Assembly: GCA_963662465.1 (NCBI GenBank)
Contig: OY759599.1
Coordinates: forward strand, 3,008,001-3,072,000
Direction: 5' to 3'
DNA: 64,000 bases
Source: Desulfatiglandales bacterium
GTDB taxonomy: Bacteria > Desulfobacterota > DSM-4660 > Desulfatiglandales > Desulfatiglandaceae
Positions 1 to 56,700 of this stretch are shown one piece after another (within the stretch, counting starts at the first letter, position 1; every line of letters begins with the position of its first letter). The notes under the pieces are model-generated. The model ran no database searches. It worked only from the letters and a program-made list of their open reading frames with translations, and was not told the DNA's origin. A program made the translations under genes and the position numbers.

Positions 1-54
1 GTTATCCGATGCACCGACAACCGCAACCGACTTGGGATTAAACAGGGCATGCAT
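1..54 (-). CDS. 5' end of an acetate/acyl-CoA ligase (NDP-forming) family protein, runs off the window
   Basis: Minus strand from ATG at 54 reads MHALFNPKSVAVVGASDN, the typical CoA-binding N-terminus; GGAG RBS upstream. Confidence 0.75.
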   Translation of the reverse strand, partial: MHALFNPKSVAVVGASDN

Positions 55-108
55 AACACAATCTCCTTCCTTCTCCATGAACATTTTTTGTCGGATATTC
101 GATATCTT

Positions 109-170
109 GTAACCGTTCACAGGGTGCAGTTGTCAGCCTCCTGCCCCCTGACAACCGCACCCTGCCCCCT
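109..170. repeat. GTAACCGTTCAC-initiated intergenic element with 7-bp inverted subrepeats (copy 1)
   Basis: GTAACCGTTCACAGGGTGCAGTTGTCAG...CTGACAACCGCACCCTG; related copies at 5493-5594, 7097-7121, 41726-41737, 62331-62355. Confidence 0.75.
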
Positions 171-3146
171 CTAAACAGTTTCCCTGACCCTTGGAAAACT
201 CAGCGTAAACGTACTCCCTCTCATTTCCCAACTCTTCACATGGATGCGCCCACCATCATTTTTCACAATCTCATTGCTGATGCAAAGCCCCAGGCCCGCC
301 CCTTTTCCGGCTTCCCGGGTGGTAAAAAAAGGCTCAAAAATCCTTTCCAACAAATCCCCGGGGATACCGATTCCCGTGTCGGACACGGAAACCTTGACCC
401 GGTTTTGTTCCGTAAAAGATCGGATCGCAATGAGTCGTCCCTTCATCTCCTCATCGGATCCTTTTCCGGCGATAATGGCCTCGCCCGCATTGGAAATCAG
501 GTTGTACATCACCTGTTCCAGTCGGTTGGCGTGACCGAAAATCAGGGGAAGATCCTCGTCCGGATCAAAGGTCGCCCGAATATCATCCAGCGATAATTGC
601 GGCCCGATGATGGCCAGGGTTTTTCGAATCACCTCATTGAGGTTAACCTTTTCTTTTTCAAATCCCCGCTTTTCTTCCAGCTCCGTGAGACGATTGATGA
701 TAACGGCAGCCCGGTCCACCTGCCCGCTGATCTCGGTAGACACCTGCAAAAGATGGTCGTCCGGAACCCTTTCCTTTCGCTGGGCCATCATTTTCAAAAA
801 CTCACTCCCCACTTTGATGGCGTTCAGCGGCTGGTTCAACTCGTGCGCAATGGCGGGAGAAATACCGCCCATGGTGGGCATGAGACGAAGCAGGTCCCAC
901 GCCGTTACCAGTTCCACATGAAGCATGATCGCCGGCAGGATGAACAAAGCCCCCACCAGCGACGCCAGCATGGTGGCCACCATGAGAAGGCCAAAGACCG
1001 CCGTGGGATTAAAATGGGAAAAAATCAGCACGGAAAACCCCATGCTGATGGCCAGGGTGGTGAATATAATCGGCCTTCCCACCCCGCGAATGGTGTCCTG
1101 GAGCGCCCGGTCCTTGTTCAGGTCTTTCTTGAACTCGCGGTTATAGCGAAACAGGTAATGAATGGTATCGTCCACGGCCAGACCGATGGCAATGCAGGCG
1201 ATAAGGCTGGTGGCAACGGAGAGCTCAATCCCCAGCCAACCCATGAGCCCAAAGCTCACCACAATGGGAAAAAGGTTGGGAAGGATGGCCATGACCCCCA
1301 CTTTCACGGAAAGGAACAGGAGCGACATGGCGGCAATGATGAGGACCAGGGTCAGGGAGAGGCTTTTCACCAGCCCCCGGGTCAACAGGCGGCTGCTTTG
1401 TGAAATCACAATCCCGAATCCGGTCACATGGCATTCAAAATCCTCTCCGAAATTCTGTTGAAGATAATCCCCGATCTCCTCCTTCAACGCCAGGAAATCC
1501 CGTGAGCTGGAGATATGGGTCCGAAGCAGGATGTTAGCTTTTTTAAGATCCTCGTCCATAAACCGACTGAACATTGCCTGCCCCAGCATGGTCTTATAAC
1601 TGTTGATCAGCATACGAATTTCAAATGATTCCGATGGGATTACGTAGGCGTCCTTGTTGTATTGACTGGCGCCGTAATTCACCAACTTAAGAAAATCCAC
1701 CAGGGAAATGGTCTTGTCGACCCCTTTCCTGGCGCTCAGGAAATCCTGAATCTCCGCAATCTGCTGGAGATGCCCGGGGTCTTCAAAATAGCCGTCAACC
1801 CTTGAATTCAACACCACGTTAACCGGAAAACTGCCCGCTGTTTGCCGGGAAACGTCTTCAAAATGACGGCTGATGGGCGTATCCTTTTTGAAAAAGCCCA
1901 CGGGATTCGTTTCCACTTTTATCTGGAAAATACCGCAGAGCGCAACGATGGTCACCATGGAAACCGCCGGCAATACCTTTTTCTGGTGACGCAGGTTCAG
2001 TTGCATAATCCAGGCAAGAAAACCGTTGATAACGCCGCGCCCCTGTCGGGAATCCATCTTGGCCTTGCGGGGCATGGAGAGGATTGAAAGTACTGCCGGC
2101 ACCGCGGTCAGCATCATCACGAGCATGCTGAGCAGACCGAAACAGGAGAAAGCGGCAAACTCCCGAATACTGTTGATCTGGTTCAGCATGAGGGAGGCCA
2201 GGCCGATAATGGTGGTGACCACCGCCAGAACCGTTGGAAATCGGACCTGAATAAAACATAAATACACCGCTTCCCTGGAAGAATCCGCGTTCAGGGCCGA
2301 CGATCGATATTCGGAAAAGAGGTACATGCAGTACGCAGTGCCCACCGCAATGAGAAAAATGGGTACAATCATGGTCAGCAGGGAAAGCGGCCTTTGGGTC
2401 CAGGCCATCATGCCGAAAGTCCAGATCAATGCGGACAGGACGGCGCCGGTGGGGATCAATACGGATCTGACATCCCGAAACAGGCATAGGAGAACAATGG
2501 CCATCACCACGAAGGTGATGGGCGGCAGTTGCAGAAAATCCCTTTCGGTATAGGCGGCAAGGGCCTGGGAAACCAGCGGCATGCCGATCTGGTAAAGGGA
2601 AAGACCTTCATTCTCTTTTTGAAGTATTTTCTCAATGGCATCGATAATCGGCGCTTTATCGGATACGTCTTCCAGAATAACCGAAAAAATGGTGGTCTTT
2701 TGGTCTTCCGAGAGAAAATTCCGTTCGAAGAGTTCGATGGGAACGATGATTTCCTTGAATTCATCCAGGGACCATCGGGAAGTAAGATCCATATCCCGTT
2801 TGATTCCCGGAAGGCTCAGAACCTTTGTCACCCCTGGAATTTTTGAGATCTCGCCGGCAATGACGGCCAATCGCTGAAAGGTTTCCGGCGCAAAGACATT
2901 CTCGGCCTTTGCCGCCACGAGGATCATTTCCTCGCTGCCGAACATCTTTTTAAATTCGCGATAATAGATACTTTCCGGCAGGTCCCGGATGGCCAGATCA
3001 TAAATGGATGTCTGAAAACGAAGGTTCGGCAGCTTCGCAGCGAAAAGCAGGGTCGCCAAAACGATCAGGATCAATACCGGAACAGGATGTCGGATCACGA
3101 ATCGAAGTCGCCGGCCGGAATTCAATGTGCGAAATATGCCTGCCAT
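171..3146 (-). CDS. MMPL/RND-family transporter fused to a C-terminal histidine kinase (HisKA + HATPase)
   Basis: About 750 aa with two TM blocks and the MMPL motif GLAVDDTIH, then H-box AHELNQPL, N-box NLISNA, G1 DTGIGI, F-box FEPFFTT, G2 GKGAGLGL. Confidence 0.85.
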   Translation of the reverse strand: MAGIFRTLNSGRRLRFVIRHPVPVLILIVLATLLFAAKLPNLRFQTSIYDLAIRDLPESIYYREFKKMFGSEEMILVAAKAENVFAPETFQRLAVIAGEISKIPGVTKVLSLPGIKRDMDLTSRWSLDEFKEIIVPIELFERNFLSEDQKTTIFSVILEDVSDKAPIIDAIEKILQKENEGLSLYQIGMPLVSQALAAYTERDFLQLPPITFVVMAIVLLCLFRDVRSVLIPTGAVLSALIWTFGMMAWTQRPLSLLTMIVPIFLIAVGTAYCMYLFSEYRSSALNADSSREAVYLCFIQVRFPTVLAVVTTIIGLASLMLNQINSIREFAAFSCFGLLSMLVMMLTAVPAVLSILSMPRKAKMDSRQGRGVINGFLAWIMQLNLRHQKKVLPAVSMVTIVALCGIFQIKVETNPVGFFKKDTPISRHFEDVSRQTAGSFPVNVVLNSRVDGYFEDPGHLQQIAEIQDFLSARKGVDKTISLVDFLKLVNYGASQYNKDAYVIPSESFEIRMLINSYKTMLGQAMFSRFMDEDLKKANILLRTHISSSRDFLALKEEIGDYLQQNFGEDFECHVTGFGIVISQSSRLLTRGLVKSLSLTLVLIIAAMSLLFLSVKVGVMAILPNLFPIVVSFGLMGWLGIELSVATSLIACIAIGLAVDDTIHYLFRYNREFKKDLNKDRALQDTIRGVGRPIIFTTLAISMGFSVLIFSHFNPTAVFGLLMVATMLASLVGALFILPAIMLHVELVTAWDLLRLMPTMGGISPAIAHELNQPLNAIKVGSEFLKMMAQRKERVPDDHLLQVSTEISGQVDRAAVIINRLTELEEKRGFEKEKVNLNEVIRKTLAIIGPQLSLDDIRATFDPDEDLPLIFGHANRLEQVMYNLISNAGEAIIAGKGSDEEMKGRLIAIRSFTEQNRVKVSVSDTGIGIPGDLLERIFEPFFTTREAGKGAGLGLCISNEIVKNDGGRIHVKSWEMRGSTFTLSFPRVRETV

Positions 3147-3161: not shown

Positions 3162-3557
3162 TTAAGAGCCTTCATCACGCCCGGGTCCATTGCGCAGTAT
3201 TTCTTCGGCTCGGGTCAAAGCCGCATCAAGCGCTTCTTTCTGAACGGGCTTATGAATAAAATCCGTCGCCTTAAGATCCAATGCCTTTCCGGCCAGCTCC
3301 TTGTCCCCATGGCCCGTAATCACAATGACCACGGCGTCGGGGGAAAATATTTTGATCCGCTTTAAAACTTCAAAGCCGTCCATACCCGGCATTTTGATAT
3401 CCGTAAACACAATGCCGGGCTTTTCCTTTTCAAATACCCGTATCCCTTCTTCGCCGTTTTCGGCCGTCAAAACCTCGAAGCCATAGGCCTCCAGAAAAAG
3501 CCGAAACATGGCCAGGGTAGGTTTTTCATCATCAATAATCAAGACCTTCCGCATCAA
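3162..3557 (-). CDS. Single-domain response regulator
   Basis: IIDDE...DIKMPGMDG...ITGHG...KP receiver motifs; 4-nt overlap with upstream kinase. Confidence 0.92.
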   Translation of the reverse strand: MMRKVLIIDDEKPTLAMFRLFLEAYGFEVLTAENGEEGIRVFEKEKPGIVFTDIKMPGMDGFEVLKRIKIFSPDAVVIVITGHGDKELAGKALDLKATDFIHKPVQKEALDAALTRAEEILRNGPGRDEGS

Positions 3558-5476
3558 TTTCTCCTTAATGAATCCATCTGCGGCAATCGCACGACAAACG
3601 TGGTTCCGATCCCCGTTCCACTGTGTACACGAATATCGCCCCCATGCTCCACAACAATTTCATAAACGATCGCCAGTCCCAGGCCCATCCCCTTTCCCAC
3701 TTCCTTGGTGGTGAAAAAGGGCTCAAAAATCTTATCGCGGGCATCTTTTGATATCCCCGAACCGGTATCCGAAATAGCTATAACGATCTGGCCATTTTTT
3801 GAAAATGACCGAATGCCGATTCTGCCGCAAACCCTCTCGCCAATAGTTTCGCACTTTTGAACAATGGCGTCGCGCGCATTGGTCAGCAGGTTGAAAATCA
3901 CCTGTTCCAGGCGATTTTTGTGGGCCAGGACCGAAGGAATGTTTTTGCCTGGAAGAAACCTGAGATCAACATCCTGAAGCTTCAATTGCGGACCGATAAG
4001 CTTTACAACATTTTCAATAGGGCTGTTGATGGAGACCTCCTCCCTGCTGAAATCCGCTTTCCTGGCAAATTCCCGCAAACGGGTAATAATCTCGGATGCC
4101 CGGTCCACTTGGTCGCTCACCTGTCCTGCTACCTGGGCCAAGTCTTTCGTTGGAATCGCCCTGCCCTGTTCCACCATCAGGGTCAAAAAATCGCTCCCCA
4201 TTTTAATGGCATTCAACGGCTGATTGAGTTCGTGGGCAATGCCCGCGGACATTTCTCCCAGACTTTTCATTTTGCCGGCCTGAATCAACTGCGCGTCCTT
4301 TTCCATGATTTCAGTAATATCACTGGTGGCCAGAACGATCACGTCCCGGCCCTGATAAAGGCCCGGACAGGCCCGCACATTCACGTAGAAGGGCCGGCGT
4401 CCTTTCCGGTAATGCCGCGCCCTCGAACTCACCACGCAGACGCTGGCCATGGCCTTTTCCCCAAGGGTCTCGCTATTCCAGTCCCCATATTCAAAAACGC
4501 CCAGATCGCTGAAAGATCGACCGATCAGATCCTCCCTGGCGTACCCGTAGGTTTCAGCCGCGGCCAAATTGGCATCCAGAATCTCAAACCCCTTCCGGGC
4601 CACCACAAAAACGGGATTGGGGCCGCTGTCAAAAAGGGAACGGTATTTCTGCTCGCTTTCCTTGAGCTGCTCCCTGCCTGCCCTGAGAGATGCGGTCATA
4701 TGGTTAAAGGCGCCTGCCAGTTGCTCTATTTCATCGCCCCAATGGTTTTTGTAGACGTCGCTCTCACTGCCTGAAGCGGGTTCCGTCTCCAGATTGCCCA
4801 GACTGATCTCGTTGGCCCGTCGAATCAGTTCCCCCATGGGCCGGGTGATGTATCCGGAAAGCCAGTGGGCAATACCGAAAAAAATGAGAATAATAACGGA
4901 GATGAAGCCCAAGAATGTTATTCGAAGCCGACCTACAATTTCATCAATATACCCTTTGCTCAACCCTACATGGACGGCGCCGATTTGTGAAGCGCCCTCT
5001 TTCAAGGGAAACGTGATATCATAAGCGGATTCTTTGCCGAAAGAAAGCCGTTCGATACGGTGGGACCGTCCGGGACCGACCCGCTTGACCTGAAGCAACG
5101 CTTCGGGAAAACCACCGTCAAAGGTATGGGCCAGTACCTCTCCATCCTGGTCCAGAACGAACATGTAGGAAATCAGCGACTCCCGATTTCCAAGTCGGGA
5201 GGCATCAAAGAGCAATCGGTTTAAGGCATCCCTGTTCACTTTCAGGACATGGGCCTTGCTCTCCTCGGCAACGCTTTGTGCAATACCCACTCCCCGCTGC
5301 TCCATTCGCGTGATCAGGCTCGAAACCAGCACCCATCGCGCCACCAGAGCAATGCCGACACTGATCAGGAGAATCACGGCCACGGAGGCAAAAAATATTT
5401 TGTTTTTGTGGCTCAGCCGACGCAAAGATCCGAGGGACATCACAATGCCGCTGATGGCGTCCTTCATGATTTTCAT
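3554..5476 (-). CDS. Membrane sensor histidine kinase (2 TM, HAMP, PAS, HisKA, HATPase)
   Basis: [21 protein letters not shown]-box [16 protein letters not shown]. Confidence 0.92.
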
Positions 5477-5676: not shown

Positions 5677-6972
5677 TTATCCCCCGGAAGAGCCAATGAT
5701 TTGCATGGTCAGGACCTGCGTCGCAGCGCTGTCGATGCCGCCCACAGCGACGATATTCTGATCCCGCTGAATGGCCGCGGCTTCAGCCCAGTCATCTCCC
5801 TGCCCCAGGTTGAAGCTTGCCACACCGCCGTTACCGAAATCCTCATCCGCAACGCCATCGGCATCGTATCGCAAAACAAGGGCATCATAATCCGTGCCGT
5901 TGTAGGTATTGCCGGCCACGACAATCTCATCCCCCTGCTGAAGACACAGCCTTCGACCATTGTCGTTTCCAGTGCCGCCGTCATAAATCACCACCCCGTC
6001 CGTGCCAAACCCTGAATCCAGTGACCCGTCTGAATTGTATCTGAGAAGGACCACATCCAGATCACTCCCGTTGCTGTTGCTGCCCGACACAACGATTTTT
6101 CCATCTGACTGAATGACGATCCCCCGTGCGCCGGCATTTCCGTGCCCTCCGTCATATCGGACGATTCCGGCCGTGCCGAATGAATTGTCGAGGATGCCGG
6201 CGGCATCGTATCTTGCAGTCAGGAGTTCAAAGCCTTCATCCGTGCTGGTGTAGCCCGTCACAACCATTTTTCCATCCGACTGAATGGCCAGGTCGCGAAA
6301 TCCGTCGTTCCCCTTTCCACCTTCATAGGAGACAACCCCATTAAGCCCGAATGAATCGTCCAGGGAACCATCCTTTTCATATCTCAGGACCATAGCGATG
6401 GATGTTCCATCCCCCGTGCTTCTCGCCGTCACAAGGATACTGCCGTCCCCTTGAACCGCGATGGCCCGACCATAGTCATCCCTGCCGGCATTATCGTAAA
6501 GGACAATGCCGTCCGTGCCGAAAAATGGGTCCAAAGTTCCATTCGCATTCAAGCGCATGAGCAGCATGTCCACATCATTGCCGTTATGGGCATATCCCGT
6601 CAGGGTAATTTTGCCGTCCGAATCCACGACAACCAAACGCCCGCAGTCGTTTCCGTTGCCGCTGTCATAAATGAAAACCCCGTCTGTCCCGAAGGTGGTG
6701 TCCAGGGTCCCATCCGGGTTGTATCGCAAAACGCCTACATCCGAGTCCGTACCGTTCAATATTCCCGTTGAAACCAAAATCTTATGGTCCATTTGAATGG
6801 CCGTTCCCACATAGGAATCCTTGTTCCAGACCCCGTAGAGCGCATATCCGTCCGGAGCATTGAAGGTCGCATCCAGATCGCCCTGCTGCTTCCCGGTGGG
6901 ATTTGGATTGGATGAGGATGAACTGCAGGCGGACAAAACACAGAAAAAAATACAGAACAGCAGTCTCTTCAT
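5677..6972 (-). CDS. Delta-60 repeat lipoprotein (predicted beta-propeller)
   Basis: Lipobox LSAC; about seven repeats of AIQxDGKIVVxG...RYNxDGxLDxxFGxxG. Confidence 0.85.
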   Translation of the reverse strand: MKRLLFCIFFCVLSACSSSSSNPNPTGKQQGDLDATFNAPDGYALYGVWNKDSYVGTAIQMDHKILVSTGILNGTDSDVGVLRYNPDGTLDTTFGTDGVFIYDSGNGNDCGRLVVVDSDGKITLTGYAHNGNDVDMLLMRLNANGTLDPFFGTDGIVLYDNAGRDDYGRAIAVQGDGSILVTARSTGDGTSIAMVLRYEKDGSLDDSFGLNGVVSYEGGKGNDGFRDLAIQSDGKMVVTGYTSTDEGFELLTARYDAAGILDNSFGTAGIVRYDGGHGNAGARGIVIQSDGKIVVSGSNSNGSDLDVVLLRYNSDGSLDSGFGTDGVVIYDGGTGNDNGRRLCLQQGDEIVVAGNTYNGTDYDALVLRYDADGVADEDFGNGGVASFNLGQGDDWAEAAAIQRDQNIVAVGGIDSAATQVLTMQIIGSSGG

Positions 6973-7358: not shown

Positions 7359-8276
7359 TTATGCCACATCGGATTTATTCAAATCACGAATTTCATAAAC
7401 CTCTTCCTCCTTCAACGCCTCAAATCCCGAAATAATATCCAGAAGCTCACTGGTGATCGCTGCCTGGCGCTGCTCCCGGAAGAGGGCCTGCAAGTCATCC
7501 TGAAGCTCCAGAATGTTTTTTTCGGCGGCCTGCATGGCCATAAGCCTGGCCGCGTTCTCACCGGCCAGAGACTGGGCGAAGGCCCTGTAAAAGGAGATAA
7601 AGAGATACTGCCGAAAGAGGTGGGCAAACATGGTTTCCCGGTTGGATCCCAGCATGGGCAGGCAGCGGTTGGGCCATGGGGCGCCGCCATAATCTTTGGC
7701 CCAGGAGGCGTCCAGGGGCAGAAGCCGTTGAAACACCGGCACGTACCCGCCCTGCTCCCCCAACACATGGTGGCACAGATAGAGGGTCTCCAGTTTTTTG
7801 GCGGACCGCCATTCCTCCACCTTCCCAATGGCCTCCTGAACCCTTTCGGTAACGGCATTCAAACTTCCCGGCGCCGGAAAATGAACAGGGTTGGGAACAC
7901 CCGCGTCCTCCAGCATACCGTGAACTTTTTCCCCCAGGCTCCAGTAATCCCAGTTCCGCCCCTGAACCGCCCGCTCCTTTATCTGTTCCTGCAGAAAGGG
8001 CCAAAGGGACTCGTTGAACTGGCCGCACATGCCCTGGTCGCTTCCCACCACGAGGCAGACATCCCCCTGGTTCCGGGACGGGGAAAGTGTGGGACGGCCC
8101 ATTCTCAGAAAAACCGACCACCCCATGTCCACCACGGCCCGGTATTGTTCCAGGGATTCCACGGCCCGTTCAAACTGCCGAATGTTCACCGCGGCCAGGC
8201 TTTTCATGGTCTTGACCACTCCCAGCAGGTCCTTTGCGGTCTTGATCTTTCGGTTCAGGGATTCCAGCGTCTGCAT
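7359..8276 (-). CDS. atpG: N-ATPase gamma subunit
   Basis: [41 protein letters not shown]. Confidence 0.95.
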
Positions 8277-9822
8277 GGTCTTCCTTCATCAGCTTGAAGG
8301 GGGCCAGCACCCCCTCCATAAGCGTGGTCAACTGTTTCCATAAAGGATCATCTTTTTCAGCGCGCAAAACGGCGTTTTCAAGGTCCGGGATCTCGGCTTT
8401 CACTTTTTCAAGGACAGCCGCCTCCGCCTCCACCACTTTTTCAACGGGAACCTCGTCCATGAGCCCGCGCGCCACCGCCAGCAACACCGCGATCTGCTCG
8501 CCGGAGGCAAGGGTTGAAAGCTCTCGCTGCTTTAGGGCCTCCCGAACCCGTCGGCCGTGTTCCAGCGTTTTCCGGGTCCGATCGTCCAGCCGGGTGCCGA
8601 ACCGGGCAAAGGCTTCCAGTTCCTGGAACTGGGTGTAGGAGAGCCGCAAATCCCCCGCCACCTGCCGATAGGCGGAAATCTGGGCCTTGCCCCCCACCCG
8701 GGATACGGATTTACCCACATCCACCGCCGGCAGCACGCCTTTCTGAAAAAGGTCCGGGGACAAATAGATCTGGCCATCCGTAATGGAGATGAGGTTGGTG
8801 GGAATATAGGCGGAGATGTTCTGGGCCTCGGTCTCGGCGATGGGGAGCGCCGTGAGGGATCCACCCCCCCGCTCTTCCTTGAGATGGGTGGAACGTTCCA
8901 GAAGCCTGGAATGGACATAAAAAATGTCCCCGGGAAAGGCTTCACGGCCCGGGGGACGTCTAAGCAGGAGGCTCAACTGCCGGTAGGCCAGGGCATGACG
9001 GGTCAGGTCATCGTAAACGATAAGCACGTCTTTGCCCTGTTCCATGAAATATTCACCCATGGTGGTGGCAGCGTAGGGAGCAATAAACTGAAGGCCGGGC
9101 GGATCATCCCCTTCCACCACCACCACCACGCTGTAGCCAATGGCCCCCTGTCGTTCCAGCTCGGCCACCACCTTGGCAATGCCGGAACTGCGCTGGCCGA
9201 TGGCACAATAGATACAGAGGACATCCTTCTGGTTGACCATGGCATCCAGGGCCACGGCGGTTTTGCCCGTCTGTCGATCCCCCAGAATCAACTCCCGCTG
9301 CCCCCGACCGATGGGAATAAGGGCGTCCACCACCTTGAGCCCGGTCTGAAGGGGCTTCACCACCGGCGCCCGATCCAAAATCCGTGGGGCTTCCCGCAGT
9401 ACCATCCAGCGCTCCCGCGCTTCAGGAATCCCCTTGCCGTCCAGGGGCCGGCCCAGGGGGTCCACCACCCTGCCGATCAATTGATCCCCCACGGGCACGT
9501 CCAGAACCCTGCCACTGCGCAGCACCTGGTCTCCGGCACTCACCGCTTCGGTGGAACCAAACAGGATGATCCCCACGCGATCGGGCAGAAGATCCAGAAC
9601 CATGCCCGAAATATCAGGCCCCACCGTCACCAGCTCTTCCGATTGGACCTGTCCCAGACCATCGGCCCAGACAATCCCCTGGTCCACTGATTTGACCCGA
9701 CCCACTTCCTGCTGTTTAAGGGTTGGAGAAAAATCTGAAATCCCCTGTTGAACGGCCCGGTCAACAGACTCCAGCACATCCTGAAGCCCGCTTTTTTCCG
9801 ATGTTTCAATTCCTTCGGTCAT
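8170..9822 (-). CDS. atpA: N-ATPase alpha subunit
   Basis: [28 protein letters not shown]; start 9822 overlaps atpF stop (ATGA). Confidence 0.95.
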
Positions 9823-10574
9823 GATTTCACCAAAGCGTCTTTGAACAGGTTTTCCATGATTTCCTTTTCCAGGTCCTGAAGATAGTCGGCCAGGTGCCAT
9901 GCCACCTTGCGGTCTCCGGCCACCACTTGAATGCCGAAACCCAGTTCCGGCGCCGGTTCTATTTGTATGCGGTTTTCACCCGGAAACCATTGGCTGAGAC
10001 GCTCTTTAAGGGTCTTTGCGTCATCCGCTTCAAGGGGAATGCCGGACTGAACCACCACGCCCCCTTTCACCGCATTCCGGGTCAATTCGTCCCTGACATG
10101 GGAGACCTTTTCAAGAAATACCCGGCACACCTGGCGATTCAAGTCCTGATCCGCCAGATCCCGAATGACCTTTCCACCAATGTGCATGACCTGTTCCACC
10201 ATGCGCTGTCTGAGTCCGTCCAGGAAGGCCCGCCGGTCCCGCGTCATGTTGGCCAGCCAGGCGCCCTGAAGGGTTTCCACTTCGTTCCTGGCGCCCTTGA
10301 GCGTCTCCTCACGCCATTTGGCCACCTGATCCCGGGCTTCCAGCATCAGCCCGTCACGGGCGTTTGCAAGGTCCGCTCTCTCCTTTTCGAGGGCCGAAGC
10401 CCTTTCCTCCGCCTTCTGTTCGGCCTGTTCAGCCCGGTTCAACGCCTGGGCAATGGTCTTTTCCCGCTCCGCAATGGCCCGAAGGATCGGTTTAAATAAA
10501 AACCGCTTCAGGAGCCAGATCAGAATCAGGAAATTAACGATCTGGGCCAGGACCGTGAACCAATTGATCAGCAC
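9819..10574 (-). CDS. atpF: N-ATPase b subunit (long form with delta-like C-terminus)
   Basis: [30 protein letters not shown], coiled coil, extended C-terminus; no separate atpH in operon. Confidence 0.92.
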
Positions 10575-23376: not shown

Positions 23377-26031
23377 ATGAATCTAAAATTTCCCGAATTT
23401 TTTTGGAAAGCTCTTGTATTTTAAAAGGCTTCTGAATAAACCCGTTGCACCCGCGGTTCAAGATGTCGCTCGCTTGGCCGTCTACACTGTAGCCACTGGA
23501 CAAGAGTACTTTCAGATGGGGATTCATTTCTCTCAGCCGATCAAAGCAATCCCCGCCTGTTATATCGGGCATAACCATGTCAAGGATGACCAATTCAATT
23601 TCATTCCTTTTCTCGCGATATAGTTGGAGTGCCTCAGTCCGTTTCCGGCCGTCAGAACATGATAGCCCATTATTTTTAGAAACTCCGCACCGATATCAAT
23701 AATCATCTCTTCATCATCCACAAGAAGCACGGTCTCGTCACCCTTATGAATTTTACCGTTCAGTGAAACCGATGATTCCGCCTCCGAACCGGCCACCCGT
23801 GCCGGCAGGAAAAAACTAATGGTCGACCACATACCCGCTTCACTTTCCGCATTAATGACACCACCATGATTCCGGATAATGCCGTAGGCGGAAGCAAGGC
23901 CAAGCCCGGTACCCTCACCCACATCCCGCGTCGTAAAAAACGGATCAAAAATCCTTTTCCGGGTCGCTTCGTCCATTCCTACCCCTGCATCCGCCACGGA
24001 GACCTTTACATACCGTCCAGGATCAAGCACAAAGGGTTTTGCATCATCTTCCGACAGAAAAACATTCTGAGTGTGAACAAAGATCTCTCCCCCTTCAGGC
24101 ATGGCCTGCGCTGCATTGACATAAAGATTCAGCAGCACCTGTTCGATCTGCCCCTGGTCCGCCTCCACCATCCAAATATTTTTCTGCAATTCCCAATGGA
24201 TGGTAATCTCTTTCTTGGCCTGGGTAAACATACGGACGCCGGCTCGGATCAATTCATTCAAGTCCGTGGCTTTTACCTCATATTTTCCCCCTCTTGCAAA
24301 TCCCAGAAGCTGCCTTGTAAGATCCGCACCTTTTTGAATATATCGTTCAATATTCTTGATCCTTTCATATTCCGAATGATCCAGGGTCTGGTTTATCAGG
24401 ATCATTGAAACATTTCCCTGGATGGCCATCAGCAAATTATTAAAGTCATGGGCGATACCCCCTGCCAGGGTGCCGATGGATTCCATTTTCTGCGCCTCAT
24501 AAAACTGGGTTTCAAGCGCCTTTTTTTCAGAGATATCTCGAAGGATGACAAACAATCCCGCTGGATGCCCCTCATAACTCTCAAATCGGGAAGCGCTGAT
24601 ACTCACATCCAGCAAACGGCGATCCTTTGTGAAACGCCTGGTGTCAAAATTATGATAGGGAATCCCATCAACCACAATATCGCGGATAATCTCCATGGAT
24701 TTTTCCCGTTCGGATTCAGGCACGAATGGAATGCGTTTTTTCTCCACTTCCTCCGGCGTCCAACCGAAAATCTCAGTAAAAGCACGATTCACATATTGGG
24801 TTTTCCCTTGCAGATCGTATAAAACAATGGCATCCGCTGAAGAAAGCAGAAAAGACCGATACATTTCCTGGGCCTTCTGTGATTCTTCATAAAGGCTTAT
24901 GAATCTCTTCTCACTCTCCCTAAGCGCCTGTTCCATATGGGTTTGCTCCGTGATATCCTGGTACGTCAGAAACTGCTTGCCTTCCCTCAGGGGAACCACG
25001 CCGAAACAAATAATTTTATCCTGTCCTGATTTGCACCTAACGGTAAACGCCCGGTCGATCTTTTCCCCAGTTGCGGCGGTTTTGATTTGATCATTCTGCC
25101 AGGTTAAGCGCACTTCGCCTCGGTAGGTTTTATCAGGATAAGCCTTTTTAAACCATGTTTCCTTATCCGGTATATCCGTTTTTGTATAACCAAAAAGGGA
25201 GATAAACTCCGGATTCAAATATTCAAAACATTGATCGGCGCCGGTCATGGAAATCCCGAAGGGGGCCTCTTCACACAGGGATCGAAACATCTTTTCACTT
25301 GCCTTGAGTTTCTGATCCGCCAGGATCCTTTTCCGCTCGGTCTTGACGGTCTCCCAAATAATATAGAGGGAAAACAACAGGGCCACGATCAAGATAACCG
25401 ACATCACGATCACCATCCGCCGCGTAATAGCGGCAATCTCTTTGTGGACATCATCCACATAGATGCCGGTTCCCACAATCCAGCCCCAGGGCTCAAAGCC
25501 TCTTACATAGGAAATCTTGGGGGCCATGCGATTCGGATCATCTTTCCATTGCCACATGTAGTCAACGTATCCGGAGGTATGATGGTTGACGGTTTTGACA
25601 AATTCCACAAAGGGACGCGTTCCATTGGAATCCTTATAATCCGACAGATCAACACCTTCTAAATCCGGAAGGTATGGATGCATTATCCCCCGTGGATGCA
25701 TGTCAATAATCCAGAAATAATCTTTTCCTTCCGGCCCGTAACGTAATTTGCGAAGTCGGTTTATGGCCCTTTTCCGCGCCTCTTTTGCTGAAAAATCTCC
25801 ATTTTTAAGTTCCGCTTCATATTGTGCCAAAAGACTCCAGGCATTATCGGTCAAATCACGGATCATCTGTCGTTTCTGCCCCATCATATGCTGCTCCATG
25901 GCGGGCATGAAAAGCAGAAAAAAACTCAGAACGAACATCAGAAACGTTAATGCAACGGGAATGATCACCCTGAGAGATGCGGCCCTGAAAGACCCACCCG
26001 CGCTGATACCGAAAAACCCACTCAATTTCAC
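23366..26031 (-). pseudogene. Hybrid sensor kinase (Cache, 2 PAS, HisKA, HATPase, REC) with a 1-nt frameshift in REC
   Basis: ORF 23560-26031 leaves frame after VLTAGNG; the shifted frame reads EALQLYREKRNEIELVILDMVMP and ends at 23366; real lesion or sequence error. Confidence 0.8.
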
Positions 26032-50231: not shown

Positions 50232-52227
50232 CGGTTGTCTCCTTTTTGGATTGTTGATTGTTGATTGTTGATTGGTGATTGTTGATTGGTGATTGGTGAT
50301 TGGTGATTGTTGATTGGTGATTGGGCAGTTCCATGATGAAGGTCGTTCCTTTTCCCAGTTCACTCTCACAGCGTATCTTCCCGCCCTGAGATTCGATAAT
50401 GCTTCTGGATACGGAAAGTCCCAAACCGGTTCCTTTTCCCACGGGCTTGGTGGTGAAAAAAGGATCAAAAATCCTTTCCATCTGTTCGGCGGGGATACCG
50501 CGGCCCGTATCACTGACGGCGATCTCAATCCATTCTCCGGCCGACCGCACTTCAAATCGGATTTCTTTTGTCTTGGTTTCATGCACGGCATCCAGGGCAT
50601 TGGTCATGAGATTGAGGAAGACCTGTTGCAGGCTGTTTCCCTTGGCCCGGATCTCCCGACATTCCTCCGGGATACAGCTTATGACCCGGATGTTGTCCTT
50701 CTCGATCCGGTAGGCCAAAAGCCTTGACACCCGTTCAAAGATATCCGCACAGTCTATCCGTCGAAATCCTTCCGCCTCCAGTTGCCCCATGTGAGAAAAA
50801 GTCAACAGGTTCCGGACCAGGTCCACGCATCTCCCGGTTTCACGCAGGGCATCTTTTAAAATCCCGTGCCGTTTGTCCTCCCGGGGGGTATGTTTGAGGC
50901 AGTACTCGATAAACCCGTTTATGCCCATCATGGGATTGTTCAATTCATGGGCAATGCCGCCCGCCATCATGCCCAGGGCCGTCATCTTTTCCGTCATGAT
51001 CCGGCTCTGCTCCTCAAGCCTGCGAGCGGTCACATCCCTGATGAGCGCCCACAGGCAGCCGGGAGTTCCCTGTCCATCCTTTGTGAGCCAGAGCCTGACG
51101 GCCGCCGCAAAAACAGACCCGTCCTTGCGCACATACTCCTTTTCGTATTCATCCGAGTATCCCCTCCGCATGACCTGCTTCTCGAGTATCTCCGCTTCCA
51201 TGCGATGCCATTTCAAGGGCGTCAAATCTTTGCGGTTGAATTTTGTCAGCTCATCCCTTCCATAGCCGGTCATATCCAGAAATGCCTGGTTTGCATCCAG
51301 GAATCTGCCGTTCATGGCACAAAAGGTAATGCCGTCCCGGCTCGATTCATAGAGGGTTCGATACTTCTCTTCGCTGTTTTTCAATGCCTCCAGGGTTTTG
51401 ATGCGATCCCGCATGTCCCGCGCCACAAGGACGGCGCCGGGAGAATCGTCCTTTCCATGGCTAAGCGTCGAGGCTGATACCTGCACGGGAATCAACACCC
51501 CGTCTTTTGTCCGAAGCTGAACATCGCTGTTCCGGTACATCAGGCCTCTGATTTCATCAGGGCCGGAGAGCGCCGCGGGAGTGAGCAGCAGGGAGGCGGA
51601 TGGGGAATCCTCAAAAAGGCGGGCCAACGGCTTTCCCGTGATCTCGCCCGCTGCATATCCGGACAGGGAAACCAGGGCTTCGTTCACGGTGCGGATCATG
51701 CCGTCGCCGGAAACCACCATCACCGCATCGACCATGGAAAGGAGAATGTTTTCCAGATAACCCCTGGCCTTCTCCACCTCGATCTTTTCCACCAGTTCAC
51801 GCCGTTGCCGATCAAGCTCCAGGAAAACCCTGACCTTGGCCAGCATGATCTCGGGCAGGTAGGGCTTGGTCACAAAGTCCACGGCCCCGGCCGCATACCC
51901 CCTGAAAACATGCTGCTCATCCGAATAAACGGCCGACAGAAAGATGATGGGAAGTCGCCGGGTTTTTTCATCGCCTCTCAGGTATTCGGCCAACTCATAA
52001 CCATCCATCTCCGGCATCTGCACATCCAGGATGGCCAGGGCAAAATCGTGGTGCAACGTGGCTTTCAGAGCCTCATTTCCGCTGCTTGCACGAATGGTCC
52101 GCGCCCCCGTTTCCCGCAACACCCTTTCGAGGGCCAGCAGGTTTTCGGGCCGGTCGTCCACGATGAGGATTTCTTGCGCTTCGTTTGGATTGTTGATTGG
52201 TGATTGTTGATTGTTGATTGCCGTCAT
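50203..52227 (-). CDS. REC-PAS-PAS histidine kinase
   Basis: LIVDDRPEN, two PAS, AHELNNP, GKGTGLGL; both termini encoded by 7-bp repeats. Confidence 0.9.
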   Translation of the reverse strand: MTAINNQQSPINNPNEAQEILIVDDRPENLLALERVLRETGARTIRASSGNEALKATLHHDFALAILDVQMPEMDGYELAEYLRGDEKTRRLPIIFLSAVYSDEQHVFRGYAAGAVDFVTKPYLPEIMLAKVRVFLELDRQRRELVEKIEVEKARGYLENILLSMVDAVMVVSGDGMIRTVNEALVSLSGYAAGEITGKPLARLFEDSPSASLLLTPAALSGPDEIRGLMYRNSDVQLRTKDGVLIPVQVSASTLSHGKDDSPGAVLVARDMRDRIKTLEALKNSEEKYRTLYESSRDGITFCAMNGRFLDANQAFLDMTGYGRDELTKFNRKDLTPLKWHRMEAEILEKQVMRRGYSDEYEKEYVRKDGSVFAAAVRLWLTKDGQGTPGCLWALIRDVTARRLEEQSRIMTEKMTALGMMAGGIAHELNNPMMGINGFIEYCLKHTPREDKRHGILKDALRETGRCVDLVRNLLTFSHMGQLEAEGFRRIDCADIFERVSRLLAYRIEKDNIRVISCIPEECREIRAKGNSLQQVFLNLMTNALDAVHETKTKEIRFEVRSAGEWIEIAVSDTGRGIPAEQMERIFDPFFTTKPVGKGTGLGLSVSRSIIESQGGKIRCESELGKGTTFIMELPNHQSTITNHQSPINNHQSTINNQQSKKETTDDQTNSCNR
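50250..50322. repeat. 7-bp tandem repeat (ATTGTTG/ATTGGTG), about 10 units
   Basis: Directly visible; same family at 52190-52220, 52297-52329, 53693-53726, 59463-59503. Confidence 0.9.
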
Positions 52228-53722: not shown

Positions 53723-56700
53723 TCACCGATATAACCACACCCGCAACATGGACAATAGACGCTTGACATCAACGGGTTTTGCCAGATAATCATTGGCGCC
53801 CGCCTCAATGCAAAGATCCCTGTCCCCCGCCATAGCCTTGGCCGTAAGGGCGATAATGGGGAGCCGATGGAACCTGGCCTGGCGCCTGATCCGCCGCATG
53901 GTCTCATATCCGTCCATAACGGGCATCATGATGTCCATCAGAACGAGGTCCACATGGGGGTCTTTTTCAAGGGCGGAAAGGGCCATTTTACCGTCATCCG
54001 CCTTGACCACTTTCATTCCCTTCTCTTCCAGAATCTTGGTCAGCGCAAAGATATTGCGCATGTCATCGTCCACCATGAGAATCTTCTTATCTTTCAGCAG
54101 CAAATCCGTATCATGCAGGTTAATGATCATTTTGCGCTGTTTTTCCGGCATCTTGTCCACCATGCGGTGCAGGAAGAGAGAGGTTTCATCCAGGAGCCGC
54201 TCATCGGACTTTACCCCCTTGATGATAATGGACTCCGCATACTCCCGCAGTTTCATTTCTTCTTCGCGGGTCAGATCCCTTCCGGTGTATACGATCACGG
54301 GCGGAATCGCCGTGTGGCCATCCCGCTCAAGCGTCTTCAGGAGGTCGAAGCCGGTCATATCCGGCAGCCCCAGGTCCAGGATGACACAATCGTAACGGGT
54401 GGTTCTCAAGGCGTTCAGGGCCGATTCCCCCGTTGCCGCCTCATCCACCCGGATGTCTCCGTTCCCCACCAGACGCACCACGCTGCCGCGCAGGATATCA
54501 TCGTCCTCCACCACCAGGAGGTTTTTCATCTTTCGGTCAAGAATATCCTCGAGCCGGGAGAAGGCCGCTTCCAGATCTTCCTGTTTGACCGGTTTGTTCA
54601 GAAAACCGATGGCCCCCTTTCTGAACGCCTCGATGGTGGGGTCCTCCACGGACATCACATGCACGGGGATATGGCGAAGGGCCGAGTCTTCCTTCAACGC
54701 CTCCAGGACCGCCCAGCCGTCCATGCCCGGAAGCCGGATATCCAGAATGACGGCCTGGGGCAAATGTTCCGACGCAAGGGAGAGCCCCTCTTCGCCGGTG
54801 GCGGACGCCAGGCACTTGAATCCCCTGTCGTGGCACTGCTTCAACAGCAGCGCCGCAAACCGGTGATCATCCTCGATCACCAGGATAACCCTCTCCCCCT
54901 TTACGATATTCTCGCGATCATCGGGGATCGAGGCGATATGCCGGATGCCGGTGGAAGCGGAACGGAGAATACGCGGTACAGGGGATTGCTGAACACCCTC
55001 CACAGACCAATCTCTTCTGCTTTCCGGCTGTGGTGTTTTTTTCTCCGGTTTCAGGGTTCCACTTTCAGGCTTTGGTTTTTCCATATCCATGGGCAGATAA
55101 AGCGTAAAGGTACTCCCCTTCCCCACCTCGCTTTGCATCTGGATTTCTCCCCCCAGGAGATGGGCCAACTCCCTGGAGATGGATAGCCCCAGCCCCGTTC
55201 CACCGTACTTCCGGGCCGTGGTGCCGTCGGCCTGCTGAAATGCCTCAAAAATGATCTTCTGTTTCTCCTCGGGGATGCCGATCCCCGTATCCTTTATGGA
55301 AATGGCCACGGTATTGGAAACGGAAAGCCCGCTGCTGAAAAGGGTCACCCCTTTTTGCGGGCGATCCATGCGAACCGTGATACGCCCTCCCTTATCCGTG
55401 AACTTGATGGCATTGGCCATGAGGTTCCGGATAATCTGCTCGGCCCGTTTGCCATCCGTGTTGATCTCCGCCGGCAGGGTTTCACCCATCTCAACCTCAA
55501 GCCCGATATCTTTTTCCCCGGCCATGTGGGCGAAATGGTCCCGAATATTGCCCGCCAGGATGTCCATTTTGACCTTTTCAAACTGCACTTCCACTTTTCC
55601 GGCCTCGATCCGGCTCAAATCCAGGATCTCGTTGATCAGGGAGAGCAGTTGATTGCCGCTGTCATGGATCACCTTTGCGGATTCCATCTGCTCTTCCGTC
55701 AGGGTCCCCTCCTTATTGTCGGCCAACATCCGGGCCAGCAGGAGGAGGCTGTTCAGGGGCGTCCGGAGTTCATGGGACATATTGGCCAGAAACTCGGATT
55801 TGTACCTGCCGGCAATGGCCAGTTGTTCGGCCCTCTCTTCCACCTGTGCCCTGGCCCGCTGGAGATTCCGGTTGGTCTGCTCCACATCCCGTTTCTGCCT
55901 CTCGAGGGCTTCGGTTTTTTCCTCCAGCTCTTCGTTGGTAACCTCCAATTCCTCCTGCTGGGTCTTAAGCCGCTCTTCCGATGCCTGGAGGGCCTGGGTC
56001 TGTTCCTCCAGCTCCTCGTTGGCGGCCTTGAGTTCCTCCTGCTGGGTCTCCAGTTCCTCGGTAAGGGCCTGGGAACGGGAAAGGGCCTCGGAAAGCCGGT
56101 CCCTGGCCTGTGCCGTCTCAATACTGATGGCCGCGGCCGGCATAACCTGATTCAGGTAGAGAAGTTGAAGGTCGGTCATATCGTCCAGGGTTCCGATCTC
56201 CAGGACCCCCTTCACGCGCTCCTCATAGAGAAGCGGGGTCACGGAGATAAACCGGGGGACGGCCTCCCCCAGGCCTGAGGTGACCCTGATATAATCTTCG
56301 GGCACATTGCGCACCAGGATCGGTTTTTTCTCCAGGGCCGCCTGCCCCACCAGGCCTTCCCCCGAACGGAACCGGTTGGACAGATTCTTCCGCTGGGTAT
56401 AAGCGTAACTCCCGGTCAGTAAGAAAGTTTCCGCCGGCCCCTCCTCGGCCGTAACGTAGATGGCGCCCACCTGGGCGCCCAGATAAGTGGAAACCTCCGA
56501 GATAATCTTTCCGGTCAACTCATTCATGTCCTGCTCGCCCCGCATGACCTCGCTGAGCCTGGCGATACCGGTCTTCAACCAGTCCTGGGCTTCCATCTCA
56601 TCCCGGGATTTTCTAAGGGCCGTCTGCATCTCCCGGATGGAAGCCGCCAGTTTCCCGGTCTCATCTTCTCCTTTTGCCGCCACGGGGGTATCCAGATTGC

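Follow-up and report, generated by a model that had tools for sequence, protein, structure and literature searches.

The 64,000-nt window analyzed here (positions 3,008,001 to 3,072,000 of contig OY759599.1, assembly GCA_963662465.1, from a Desulfatiglandales bacterium) carries a block of four genes, in which a Cache-HAMP-PAS kinase is followed by a receiver-only response regulator, an RND transporter fused to a histidine kinase, and an acetate-CoA-ligase-alpha-like gene (Table 1). The kinase and regulator genes overlap by 4 bp, and gaps of 15 bp and 50 bp precede the fusion gene and the ligase-like gene, respectively, in keeping with a first-pass annotation, made from the letters alone, that had placed the fusion third in a kinase-regulator operon. 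The same annotation had described one unbroken ORF joining a two-module MMPL protein to a kinase core with H, N, G1, F and G2 boxes; we find that the ORF starts with ATG, has no internal stops and encodes both Pfam domain sets and all five boxes. The partner kinase is the closest kinase-core paralogue of the fused core in the genome (47% identity, 109/233 by BLASTP; 37% for the runner-up), and the two kinases carry the same 12-residue H box. Pfam detected no output domain in the regulator. The NDP-forming acyl-CoA synthetase that had been reported downstream is present as a gene for 481 aa with a GTG start at window position 120 and CoA_binding and Succ_CoA_lig domains; however, its score of 397 bits against TIGR02717 (NDP-forming acetate-CoA ligase; cutoff, 567) indicates a likeness to the alpha subunit only, and no ATP-grasp beta part adjoins it. 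An AMP-binding gene is located 4.8 kb downstream.

Table 1. Features of the four-gene block, in window coordinates
Feature	Position	Strand	Basis
RND-kinase fusion gene (991 aa, P0001)	171..3146	-	ORF/translation, Pfam, NCBIfam, 37-sequence family alignment
RND module (HAE3-like, Pfam MMPL x2), residues 1-741	924..3146	-	Pfam, AF2 secondary structure, Foldseek
TM10 motif D659-D660-T-I-H663, candidate proton-relay residues	1158..1172	-	Alignment, codons checked
Juxtamembrane linker, residues 742-767, motif HVELVTAWDLL	846..923	-	Alignment; W750, D751 invariant
DHp/HisKA domain, residues 757-830	657..878	-	Pfam HisKA 765-825, alignment
HATPase_c catalytic domain, residues 872-986: N886, D923xG925xG927, F940 F941, G951xG953	189..533	-	Pfam, alignment, codons checked
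Receiver-only response regulator (131 aa, TTG start after AAGGAG)	3162..3557	-	Pfam Response_reg 5-114 only
Partner kinase (640 aa): sCache_3_2, HAMP, PAS, HisKA, HATPase_c	3554..5476	-	Pfam
Acetate-CoA-ligase-alpha-like gene, first 40 codons	1..120	-	Rest beyond window, L001 13675-15120

The joining of the two parts is not an assembly artefact produced, for example, by collapse of two kinase genes, since the fused and partner cores are only 47% identical, the genome is closed (one 8.16-Mb contig), other contigs bridge the junction, and an RND body is joined directly to a kinase core at 40 other loci. A 14-kb contig built by another assembler from runs X1/X2 (one sample, possibly the source of the genome) matches window positions 1-2951 with 0 differences, and a contig from a second sample (X3) spans positions 730-930, again with 0 differences. 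Nor is the architecture confined to this genome, since many relatives among sulfate reducers have it. When the 120 best-matching clusters (built at 90% identity; 49-93% identity, about 990 aa) were examined, MMPL and HATPase_c occurred together in 119, so homologs as a rule keep the kinase. The 40 loci are the best tblastn matches and are mutually related, and counts over them are not counts of independent samples. In a sample of 401 genomes of the phylum, with two candidates per genome scored at E<=1e-60, at least three had full-length matches (G000, G366 and G040), a number that does not translate into a frequency. Among the best 150 matches to 50%-identity representatives, a single full-length protein (P0100) was accompanied by fragments, which fits a narrow family. 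Metatranscriptome run X10 yielded short contigs only, 95-99% identical and from a relative, with no bearing on expression of the operon.

The membrane part has the traits of the RND superfamily, namely, 12 TM helices, large periplasmic loops after TM1 and TM7, and an internal 2-fold repeat. In the AlphaFold model, which is a monomer (pLDDT 79.3, pTM 0.66), the loops form two alpha/beta periplasmic domains at about residues 45-188 and 410-576, and TM12 ends near residue 741. Pfam assigns MMPL to two stretches of the protein (E = 3.1e-38), with additional matches to Sterol-sensing (235-355) and Patched SSD (605-741); RND-type families alone were found in the membrane part, and SSF, Amt and STAC were absent. 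The best Foldseek matches of the body are MmpL5, MmpL4, MmpL3, HpnN, NPC1 and Patched, with TM-scores on the target of ~0.76 for the three MmpL proteins and 0.63-0.65 for HpnN. We call the fusion HAE3-like rather than a certified HAE3 member because its score against the HAE3 model TIGR00921, 233.6 bits, falls below the cutoff of 351.9. A sequence search of solved structures returned separate kinase and MmpL/HpnN/Patched matches and no fused structure.

RND proteins are proton driven, and the residues that are candidates for the relay in TM10 (D659, D660 and H663) are invariant in all 37 aligned fusions. They match those of plain relatives: among 129 RND representatives, plain transporters included, D659 is kept in 126, the DD pair in 107, and H663 in 125. 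TM4 of the fusion (AVGTAYCMY) has no acidic residue and offers only Y272; an acidic TM4 residue occurs in 53 of the 129 relatives. Since the RND machinery bears no sign of degeneration, the fusion may still transport.

The first-pass annotation had also pointed to a very short linker after the last TM helix, and this was borne out: the predicted phosphoacceptor His768 (codon 843-845, checked) comes 25 to 27 residues past the end of TM12, with no HAMP or PAS domain in between. Residues 747-766 of this segment have a pLDDT below 50 in the monomer model, which does not give the geometry of transmission. The kinase part combines a HisKA match at 765-825 (28.0 bits; cutoff, 26.9) with a HATPase_c match at 872-986 (77.9 bits) and has the traits of a HisKA-type kinase, with the H box in the DHp domain and the N, G1, F and G2 boxes all present. 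All 37 aligned family members share H768, N886, D923/G925/G927, F940/F941 and G951/G953 without exception, ruling out a degenerate kinase. One polypeptide thus contains both the kinase core and an entire transporter fold.

The sequence HVELVTxWDLL after TM12 is common to RND-kinase and RND-cNMP-GGDEF proteins. Its [TS]xWD core was found in 62 of 76 representatives of at least 880 aa versus 3 of 49 under 830 aa. Whatever the tail, a [TS]xWD linker connects it to the RND body. A cNMP-binding domain is the sole tail in 16 of 32 scanned RND representatives, all six long sister proteins tested carry GGDEF, and P0229 represents a second, independent RND-kinase type. In a tree of kinase cores, a single clade (SH-like support 0.945) takes in all 38 fused cores and is nested among 31 cores of partner kinases, from which we infer one origin of the fused core, through duplication of the partner kinase. 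Unlike this single clade, the tree of the RND part mixes kinase and cNMP-GGDEF forms (node support 0.92-0.97).

Conservation of gene neighborhoods was uneven. A paralogous second kinase is present at 30 of the 40 fusion loci and a regulator homologue (at least 50% identity) at 28; both occur at 27, and at 15 of the 18 loci having at least 4 kb on each side. In contrast to this pair, the acetate-CoA-ligase-alpha-like gene is found at 7 of the 40, so the acyl-CoA context is restricted to the clade of the window gene. [NiFe] hydrogenase clusters house 22 of the 40 fusion loci, often next to a regulatory-type hydrogenase, and 33 of 48 loci of the sister RND-cNMP-GGDEF proteins lie inside periplasmic [NiFe] hydrogenase clusters; five more genome loci (L113, L114 and L116-L118) also have a hydrogenase context. 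The usual order is small subunit (SSU), large subunit (LSU), protease, RND-kinase, Tat-less SSU, LSU with a short tail, PAS kinase, regulator and HypF, with the Tat-less SSU at 16 and the short-tailed LSU at 14 of the 40 loci. The link does not extend across the whole cNMP-tailed superfamily, in that 0 of 14 distant loci had hydrogenase matches. Those distant loci differ in their partners, too: LolA-like/DUF1302 export partners adjoin 6 of the 14 but 0 of 94 near-clade loci, none is present in the window, and adenylate cyclases lie nearby at 2.

The window clade has left the hydrogenase context and is flanked by acyl-CoA-synthetase-type genes. None of its eight loci has hydrogenase genes; the acetate-CoA-ligase-alpha-like gene closes the block in seven, and an AMP-binding match immediately precedes the Cache kinase in all eight, with the ORF at L005 confirmed by Pfam. 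The window genome contains no regulatory-hydrogenase homologue, the best matches to the Tat-less SSU and the short-tailed LSU being Hyn subunits at 27-35% identity, and its sole Hyn cluster holds an RND-cNMP paralogue instead of the fusion gene. No fatty-acid degradation or lipid-synthesis gene was seen next to the fusion.

Several known systems resemble parts of this arrangement. HAE3, MmpL and HpnN proteins share the fold, the internal duplication and the TM10 Asp motif; the fusion differs in scoring below the HAE3 cutoff, in lacking an acidic TM4 residue and a LolA-like/DUF1302 neighbor, and in having a kinase tail. Patched, SCAP and NPC1 act as receptors or sensors, and in them, too, an RND fold with a sterol-sensing-domain signature (by Pfam and Foldseek) is used in a signaling pathway, but the homology is distant and Patched and SCAP have no direct enzymatic output, whereas the kinase of the fusion is covalently attached. 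HoxBC-HoxJ-HoxA and HupUV-HupT-HupR combine a regulatory hydrogenase with a kinase and an NtrC-type regulator and are not known to include an RND-kinase. Compared by gene features, relatives of the fusion resemble HoxBC-HoxJ and HupUV-HupT in their Tat-less SSU, LSU almost without a C-terminal extension, and PAS kinase; the window locus and genome differ in having no regulatory [NiFe] hydrogenase.

The closest parallels in architecture are the transporter-fused kinases CbrA and CrbS, to which the first-pass annotation had compared the fusion, aptly, in that a whole secondary-transporter body stands N terminal to a HisKA/HATPase_c core in one polypeptide. The regulator that pairs with CbrA is of the NtrC type, unlike the receiver-only one beside the fusion. 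The Amt fold is trimeric and channel-like with ammonium as the ligand, in contrast to the 12-TM proton-driven pump fold of the fusion. CbrA and CrbS are SLC5 proteins, unrelated to RND. In CbrA, according to PMC11109136, STAC and PAS modules separate the kinase from the transporter, compared with a 25-residue linker in the fusion. Both transport and kinase activities are reported for CbrA in PMC7096432. In PMC5764959 and PMC11152129, Ks-Amt5 (Amt-kinase) and Sd-Amt1 (Amt-HAMP-GGDEF) are ammonium sensors in which a transporter fold serves as the receptor for a kinase or diguanylate-cyclase tail, a parallel to the RND-kinase and RND-cNMP-GGDEF pair. The BceS/BceAB system, as covered in PMC11109136, shares the concept of a kinase that reads transporter activity, but there the transporter is of the ABC type and a separate protein rather than of the RND type and fused. 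The fusion thus appears to resemble transporter-fused kinases in its working but belongs to neither the SLC5 nor the Amt family. In a literature search that lay outside subscription journals and supplements, we found no description of an RND/MMPL-kinase fusion or of RND genes in hydrogenase clusters, in line with the earlier remark that no characterized fusion of this kind was known to the annotator; the available sections of PMC13101534, PMC11887813 and PMC11109136 contain nothing on either.

Judged from domain content and conservation, the fusion probably works as a transporter-shaped sensor kinase that feeds the shared regulator, a reading in which we place somewhat more trust than doubt. 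The conserved juxtamembrane segment past TM12 would relay the state of the RND body to the kinase. Both kinases would target the one receiver-only regulator, phosphorylating it, dephosphorylating it or both, which would bring two inputs together: the ligand of the periplasmic Cache domain, and anything that the RND body binds, moves or senses. For most of the family, the signal would be tied to periplasmic H2 oxidation. In the window clade, a carboxylic-acid or hydrophobic-acid signal is possible because the acid-CoA ligase-like gene (7/8) and the AMP-binding match (8/8) flank the block. If transport is retained, flux sensing and a regulated pump would be as compatible with the protein as pure sensing is.

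The first-pass annotation had favored a flux sensor, with an RND body that moves a lipid or fatty acid and a kinase that reports turnover and regulates acyl-CoA metabolism. The match of the fold to the lipid movers MmpL3/4/5, HpnN and NPC1, the retained TM10 relay residues, and the flanking genes of the window clade, with the AMP-binding gene kept downstream in the window genome, agree with this proposal, and its acyl-CoA element stands to that extent. Its lipid element fares worse: the acyl-CoA context is limited to the window clade (ligase-like gene, 7/40), and the family as a whole keeps company with the kinase, the regulator and hydrogenase genes; no LolA-like/DUF1302, fatty-acid degradation or lipid-synthesis genes were seen alongside; and the downstream enzyme resembles acetate or short-acid ligases, not long-chain ones. 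Every observation suits ligand sensing as well as flux sensing, and we consider the proposal unlikely. The direction of control could also be reversed, with the RND body as the effector of a regulated pump whose transport is gated by the nucleotide or phosphorylation state of the kinase tail, as set by the partner kinase and the regulator. The half of the scanned representatives that end in a cNMP-binding domain have an input domain without an output, and distant relatives adjoin LolA-like export partners (6/14) or adenylate cyclases (2); the cNMP domain of such relatives most likely controls the transporter, and the linker could therefore transmit from tail to RND body. One linker type serves all tails, the transport residues are intact, and the regulator itself lacks an output domain. 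A mere gate, however, would not need the strict conservation of all catalytic boxes; to our knowledge, HisKA/HATPase_c and GGDEF are transmitter modules in every characterized case, and we are aware of no case in which a kinase core gates the transporter that it is fused to. We doubt that the fusion is such a pump.

The hydrogenase context raises the further prospect of an RND body that responds not to a transported substrate but to proton-motive force, to protons in the periplasm or to a membrane redox carrier, for example, menaquinone. The share of fusion loci (22/40) and sister loci (33/48) in periplasmic [NiFe] hydrogenase clusters, the additional hydrogenase-linked loci, and the invariant D659, D660 and H663 of a proton-driven family are all compatible with energy or redox sensing. 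For the gene at hand this seems improbable, given a clade with no locus in hydrogenase context (0/8) and a genome whose Hyn cluster houses the RND-cNMP paralogue and which lacks a regulatory-hydrogenase homologue; gene neighborhood, moreover, is equally compatible with sensing of proton-motive force, a quinone, a metal or a protein partner. Because output-type tails (kinase, or cNMP with GGDEF) stand in place of the cNMP-only tail of distant relatives and LolA-like partners are missing, we infer that the near clade turned from hydrophobe export to signaling. Tentatively, and with more reserve than conviction, we suggest a wider history in which a clade of hydrophobe exporters may have become membrane receptors, counterparts of Patched and SCAP, wired through [TS]xWD to a histidine kinase or a cNMP-gated diguanylate cyclase. 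These would originally have reported periplasmic hydrogen oxidation (through the proton gradient, a membrane redox carrier or the hydrogenase itself) alongside the regulatory hydrogenase, and the window gene would belong to a branch redeployed to organic-acid metabolism.

Transporter-shaped receptors are rare in bacteria, and those studied are built on SLC5, Amt or ECF S-component folds; with an RND body coupled directly to a kinase, the largest proton-driven pump family would join this class. The fusion would offer a tractable system for reading out RND conformational cycling, with a bearing on Patched/SCAP signaling in eukaryotes. The hydrogenase link points to an undescribed layer of H2 or energy sensing in sulfate-reducing Desulfobacterota, which are key to marine carbon and sulfur cycling. 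In the databases, these proteins are named "MMPL family transporter" only and the kinase is overlooked; the [TS]xWD motif could serve as a simple sequence marker for signaling RNDs.

The gene that the first-pass annotation had read as an MMPL transporter fused to an intact histidine kinase, third in a kinase-regulator operon, is the third gene of a tight same-strand block, and its ORF, domains and gene order were borne out at each point checked. Pfam detected MMPL in two stretches together with sterol-sensing and Patched SSD signatures, followed by HisKA at residues 765-825 and HATPase_c at 872-986. The top NCBIfam model for the membrane part was the HAE3 subfamily; the RND fold is common to both, but the fusion scores 233.6 bits, below the cutoff of 351.9. 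For the kinase part, AtoS/ZraS-type models ranked first. An AlphaFold2 model built from a 37-sequence family alignment (pLDDT 79.3, pTM 0.66) shows 12 helices in the membrane and, on the periplasmic side, two alpha/beta domains, and Foldseek grouped the membrane part with MmpL5, MmpL4, MmpL3, HpnN, NPC1 and Patched. The last membrane helix, TM12, stops close to residue 741; 25-27 residues further on comes the phospho-accepting His768, with neither a HAMP nor a PAS domain in between. In the same alignment, the kinase residues H768, N886, D923, G925, G927, F940, F941, G951 and G953, the TM10 residues D659, D660 and H663, and W750 and D751 of the linker are invariant, the linker being as conserved as the catalytic boxes. 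The RND body may still transport; like plain relatives, it keeps the TM10 D-D-x-x-H (DD in 107 and H in 125 of 129 relatives), and its TM4 has no acidic residue, which is also so in 76 of the 129.

The window genome is one contig of 8.16 Mb. The two kinase cores of the block share an H box but are only 47% identical, so that a collapsed assembly cannot account for the fusion and was ruled out as its source. The junction, proposed earlier as a point to verify, held: contigs from another assembler for runs X1 and X2 (a single sample, possibly the source of the window genome) match window 1-2951 with 0 differences, and a contig from a second sample spans 730-930, across the junction. The architecture also recurs. 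MMPL and HATPase_c occur together in 119 of the 120 top clusters from a 5.8-billion-protein collection (identity 49-93%, length mostly 960-1036 aa), the sole exception being the 769-aa P0043. Source names, where present, are "MMPL family transporter" or one other description, and the sequences come from Desulfatibacillum, Desulfobacteraceae, Desulfatitalea, Desulfatiglandales and NaphS2, apart from one record that bears the label Pseudomonadota. Clustered at 50%, the family comes down to about a single representative, P0100, plus fragments among the matches listed; the RND-kinase family is thus narrow.

Coordinates of the RND-kinase block and of other features discussed (L001, window genome region around the block; L002 and L003, other loci of the window genome, G000; L010, a related locus)
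Feature	Locus	Coordinates	Strand	Remarks
481-aa gene, CoA_binding + Succ_CoA_lig	window	from 120, running beyond the window	-	50 bp after the fusion
RND-kinase fusion	window	171-3146	-	single open frame, 991 codons
Receiver-only regulator, 131 aa	window	3162-3557	-	4-bp overlap with partner kinase; 15 bp to the fusion
Partner kinase, 640 aa: sCache_3_2, HAMP, PAS, HisKA, HATPase_c	window	3554-5476	-
Predicted lipoprotein, 431 aa, six DUF5122 beta-propeller repeats	window	5677-6972	-	directly upstream of partner kinase
ATP synthase gamma	window	7359-8276	-	upstream of signalling block
ATP synthase alpha	window	8170-9900 as listed	-	upstream of signalling block
Kinase-core matches	window	about 23806-24543, 50308-50988, 55088-55780, 57817-58518
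Second signalling block: PAS-GAF-PAS kinase (746 aa), receiver protein (164 aa), PAS kinase (388 aa)	L001	4309-8426		outside the window, 6.7-10.9 kb downstream
AMP-binding enzyme gene	L001	8491-10287		adjoins second signalling block
Large subunit, RND + cNMP_binding (915 aa), HycI-type protease, cytochrome c3	L002	3870-11057 (G000:C1:6003885-6011054)		outside the window
TetR, RND (1025 aa), LolA_like, DUF1302	L003	3474-9648 (G000:C1:7987474-7993648)
Tat-less [NiFe] small subunit, large subunit with 5-residue tail, triple-PAS kinase, receiver-only regulator	L010	11108-15780

The product of the 481-aa gene has similarity to the NDP-forming acetate-CoA ligase alpha subunit, at a score below the cutoff, and no ATP-grasp partner was found adjoining it. 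The ATP synthase ORFs as listed overlap each other, which makes a later start for alpha probable. With more than 140 kinase-core matches in the whole genome, several of them in the window, the two-component repertoire is unusually large. The AMP-binding gene beside the second signalling block is also kept in L004, a 93% relative.

Gene neighbourhoods were surveyed by tblastn with Pfam-confirmed reference proteins at 8 genome and 80 metagenome loci. Among 40 RND-kinase loci, 30 encode a second paralogous kinase and 28 a receiver-only regulator; 27 have the two together, the pair being found in 15 of the 18 loci whose flanks are each 4 kb or longer. Hydrogenase-related genes, one or more per locus, were found in 22 of the 40, with a typical layout of small subunit, large subunit, maturation protease, RND-kinase, (regulator), second small subunit, second large subunit, PAS kinase, regulator, HypF. 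At L010, a Tat signal is missing from the second small subunit, and just 5 residues follow DPCxxCxxH in the second large subunit; from these features we infer that this enzyme resembles a cytoplasmic regulatory hydrogenase. The L010 arrangement, also seen in L021, L023-L026, L030-L032, L038, L043, L049, L052, L116 and L117, resembles a HoxBC-HoxJ H2 sensor in a Desulfobacterota form that has no NtrC-type regulator. This hydrogenase and H2-sensing context of the family is not visible from the window alone.

The 18 RND-kinase loci without a hydrogenase match comprise the eight of the window clade (L004-L009, L019 and L020; 71-93% identity) and Cache-kinase-type loci or short contigs. All eight window-clade loci have an AMP-binding match, the Cache kinase, the regulator and the RND-kinase; in these relatives the AMP-binding gene occupies the place of the window's lipoprotein gene. 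The acetate-CoA-ligase-alpha-like gene follows in seven, a glycosyltransferase standing in its place in L005. No regulatory-hydrogenase homologue was found in the window genome. The PAS-kinase part of the Cache kinase shares 49% identity with the PAS kinase of hydrogenase-linked loci; the window partner would thus be the same kinase lineage with its input swapped, a periplasmic Cache domain replacing the PAS domains beside the regulatory hydrogenase.

Beyond the kinase-tailed proteins, the other best representatives (900-1135 aa) align to the fusion only over residues 12-756. Pfam typing of 32 RND representatives gave tails of cNMP_binding only (16), cNMP_binding plus GGDEF (5), only GGDEF detected (2), HisKA plus HATPase_c (2), C-terminal LolA_like (2) and none detected (5). 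The kinase-tailed pair is P0100 and P0229 (1071 aa, HisKA at 808-875); the latter is apparently an independent fusion, since it branches with cNMP-tailed outgroups, has a longer linker and is 29% identical. All six long sister proteins of metagenomic origin have full GGDEF domains. HVELVTxWDLL directly after TM12 is common to kinase-tailed and cNMP-GGDEF-tailed RNDs, and [TS]xWD occurs there in 62 of 76 representatives of at least 880 aa versus 3 of 49 below 830 aa; we infer that this segment is a common coupling element joining RND body and tail.

Sister loci, encoding RND-cNMP(-GGDEF) proteins, were hydrogenase-linked in 33 of 48 metagenome cases, the genes usually running small subunit, large subunit, RND, protease, cytochrome c3, and the receiver-only regulator was found in none of the 48. 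Both neighbourhood patterns recur in further genome loci (L113, L114, L116, L117 and L118). RND-cNMP_binding-GGDEF proteins (about 1055-1090 aa) are a repeated component of hydrogenase operons across L050-L098, L113, L114 and L118, an arrangement for which the literature searched yielded no description. The closest RND paralogue in the window genome (57% identity) is an RND plus cNMP_binding protein. The L002 cluster with the 915-aa paralogue is the genome's only periplasmic [NiFe] hydrogenase (Hyn) cluster.

In a FastTree of kinase cores (rooted with four other window-genome kinases; matches below 215 residues or 40% identity dropped), all 38 fused cores group in a single clade (support 0.945) that branches from within the 31 partner cores; this suggests a single duplication-and-fusion event. 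In a second FastTree, built on 86 RND parts with two plain transporters as the root (loci with RND matches below 680 residues dropped), fusions and sisters fall in one long-branched clade (0.962), within which kinase-tailed and cNMP-GGDEF-tailed forms interleave (nodes 0.92-0.97), implying later tail exchange or tree error.

The RND-kinase fusion is genuine and conserved, and adds an unstudied variant to the transporter-fused sensor kinases. It is predicted to work like CbrA/CrbS (SLC5-kinase), Ks-Amt5 (Amt-kinase) and Sd-Amt1 (Amt-GGDEF), but belongs to none of these families. To our knowledge, the eukaryotic Patched and SCAP are the sole RND-fold proteins known in signalling. Full-text searches of open-access articles turned up nothing on RND/MMPL-kinase fusions or RND genes in hydrogenase clusters, and the main text of a survey of prokaryotic transceptors (PMC11109136) is without RND or MMPL.

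The RND body would serve as input and the kinase as output, with the receiver-only regulator as target of both kinases. This direction is favored by the nature of kinase and GGDEF as transmitter modules, by the conservation of the linker and by the loss in the near clade (fusions and sisters) of the export partners of distant relatives: LolA-like matches were found in 0 of 94 near-clade loci, none in the 64-kb window and none in L001. The reverse, a pump gated by its tail, is a serious contender, since that is most likely how the ancestral cNMP tail acts. As to the signal, context points to periplasmic H2 oxidation for most of the family (with the proton gradient, a redox carrier in the membrane or the hydrogenase as the thing read) and to an organic or hydrophobic acid for the window clade.

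Distant cNMP-tailed RNDs (14 loci, L099-L112; 27-30% identity) had no hydrogenase match at any locus. LolA_like and DUF1302-type envelope proteins adjoin them at six loci and adenylate/guanylate cyclases at two (L099 and L102), suggesting cyclic-nucleotide-gated hydrophobe export. Two such RND genes stand in tandem at L110. The window genome also has a classical RND cluster at L003, which is like the 'Nanopod' MMPL cluster discussed for benzene degraders in PMC13101534.
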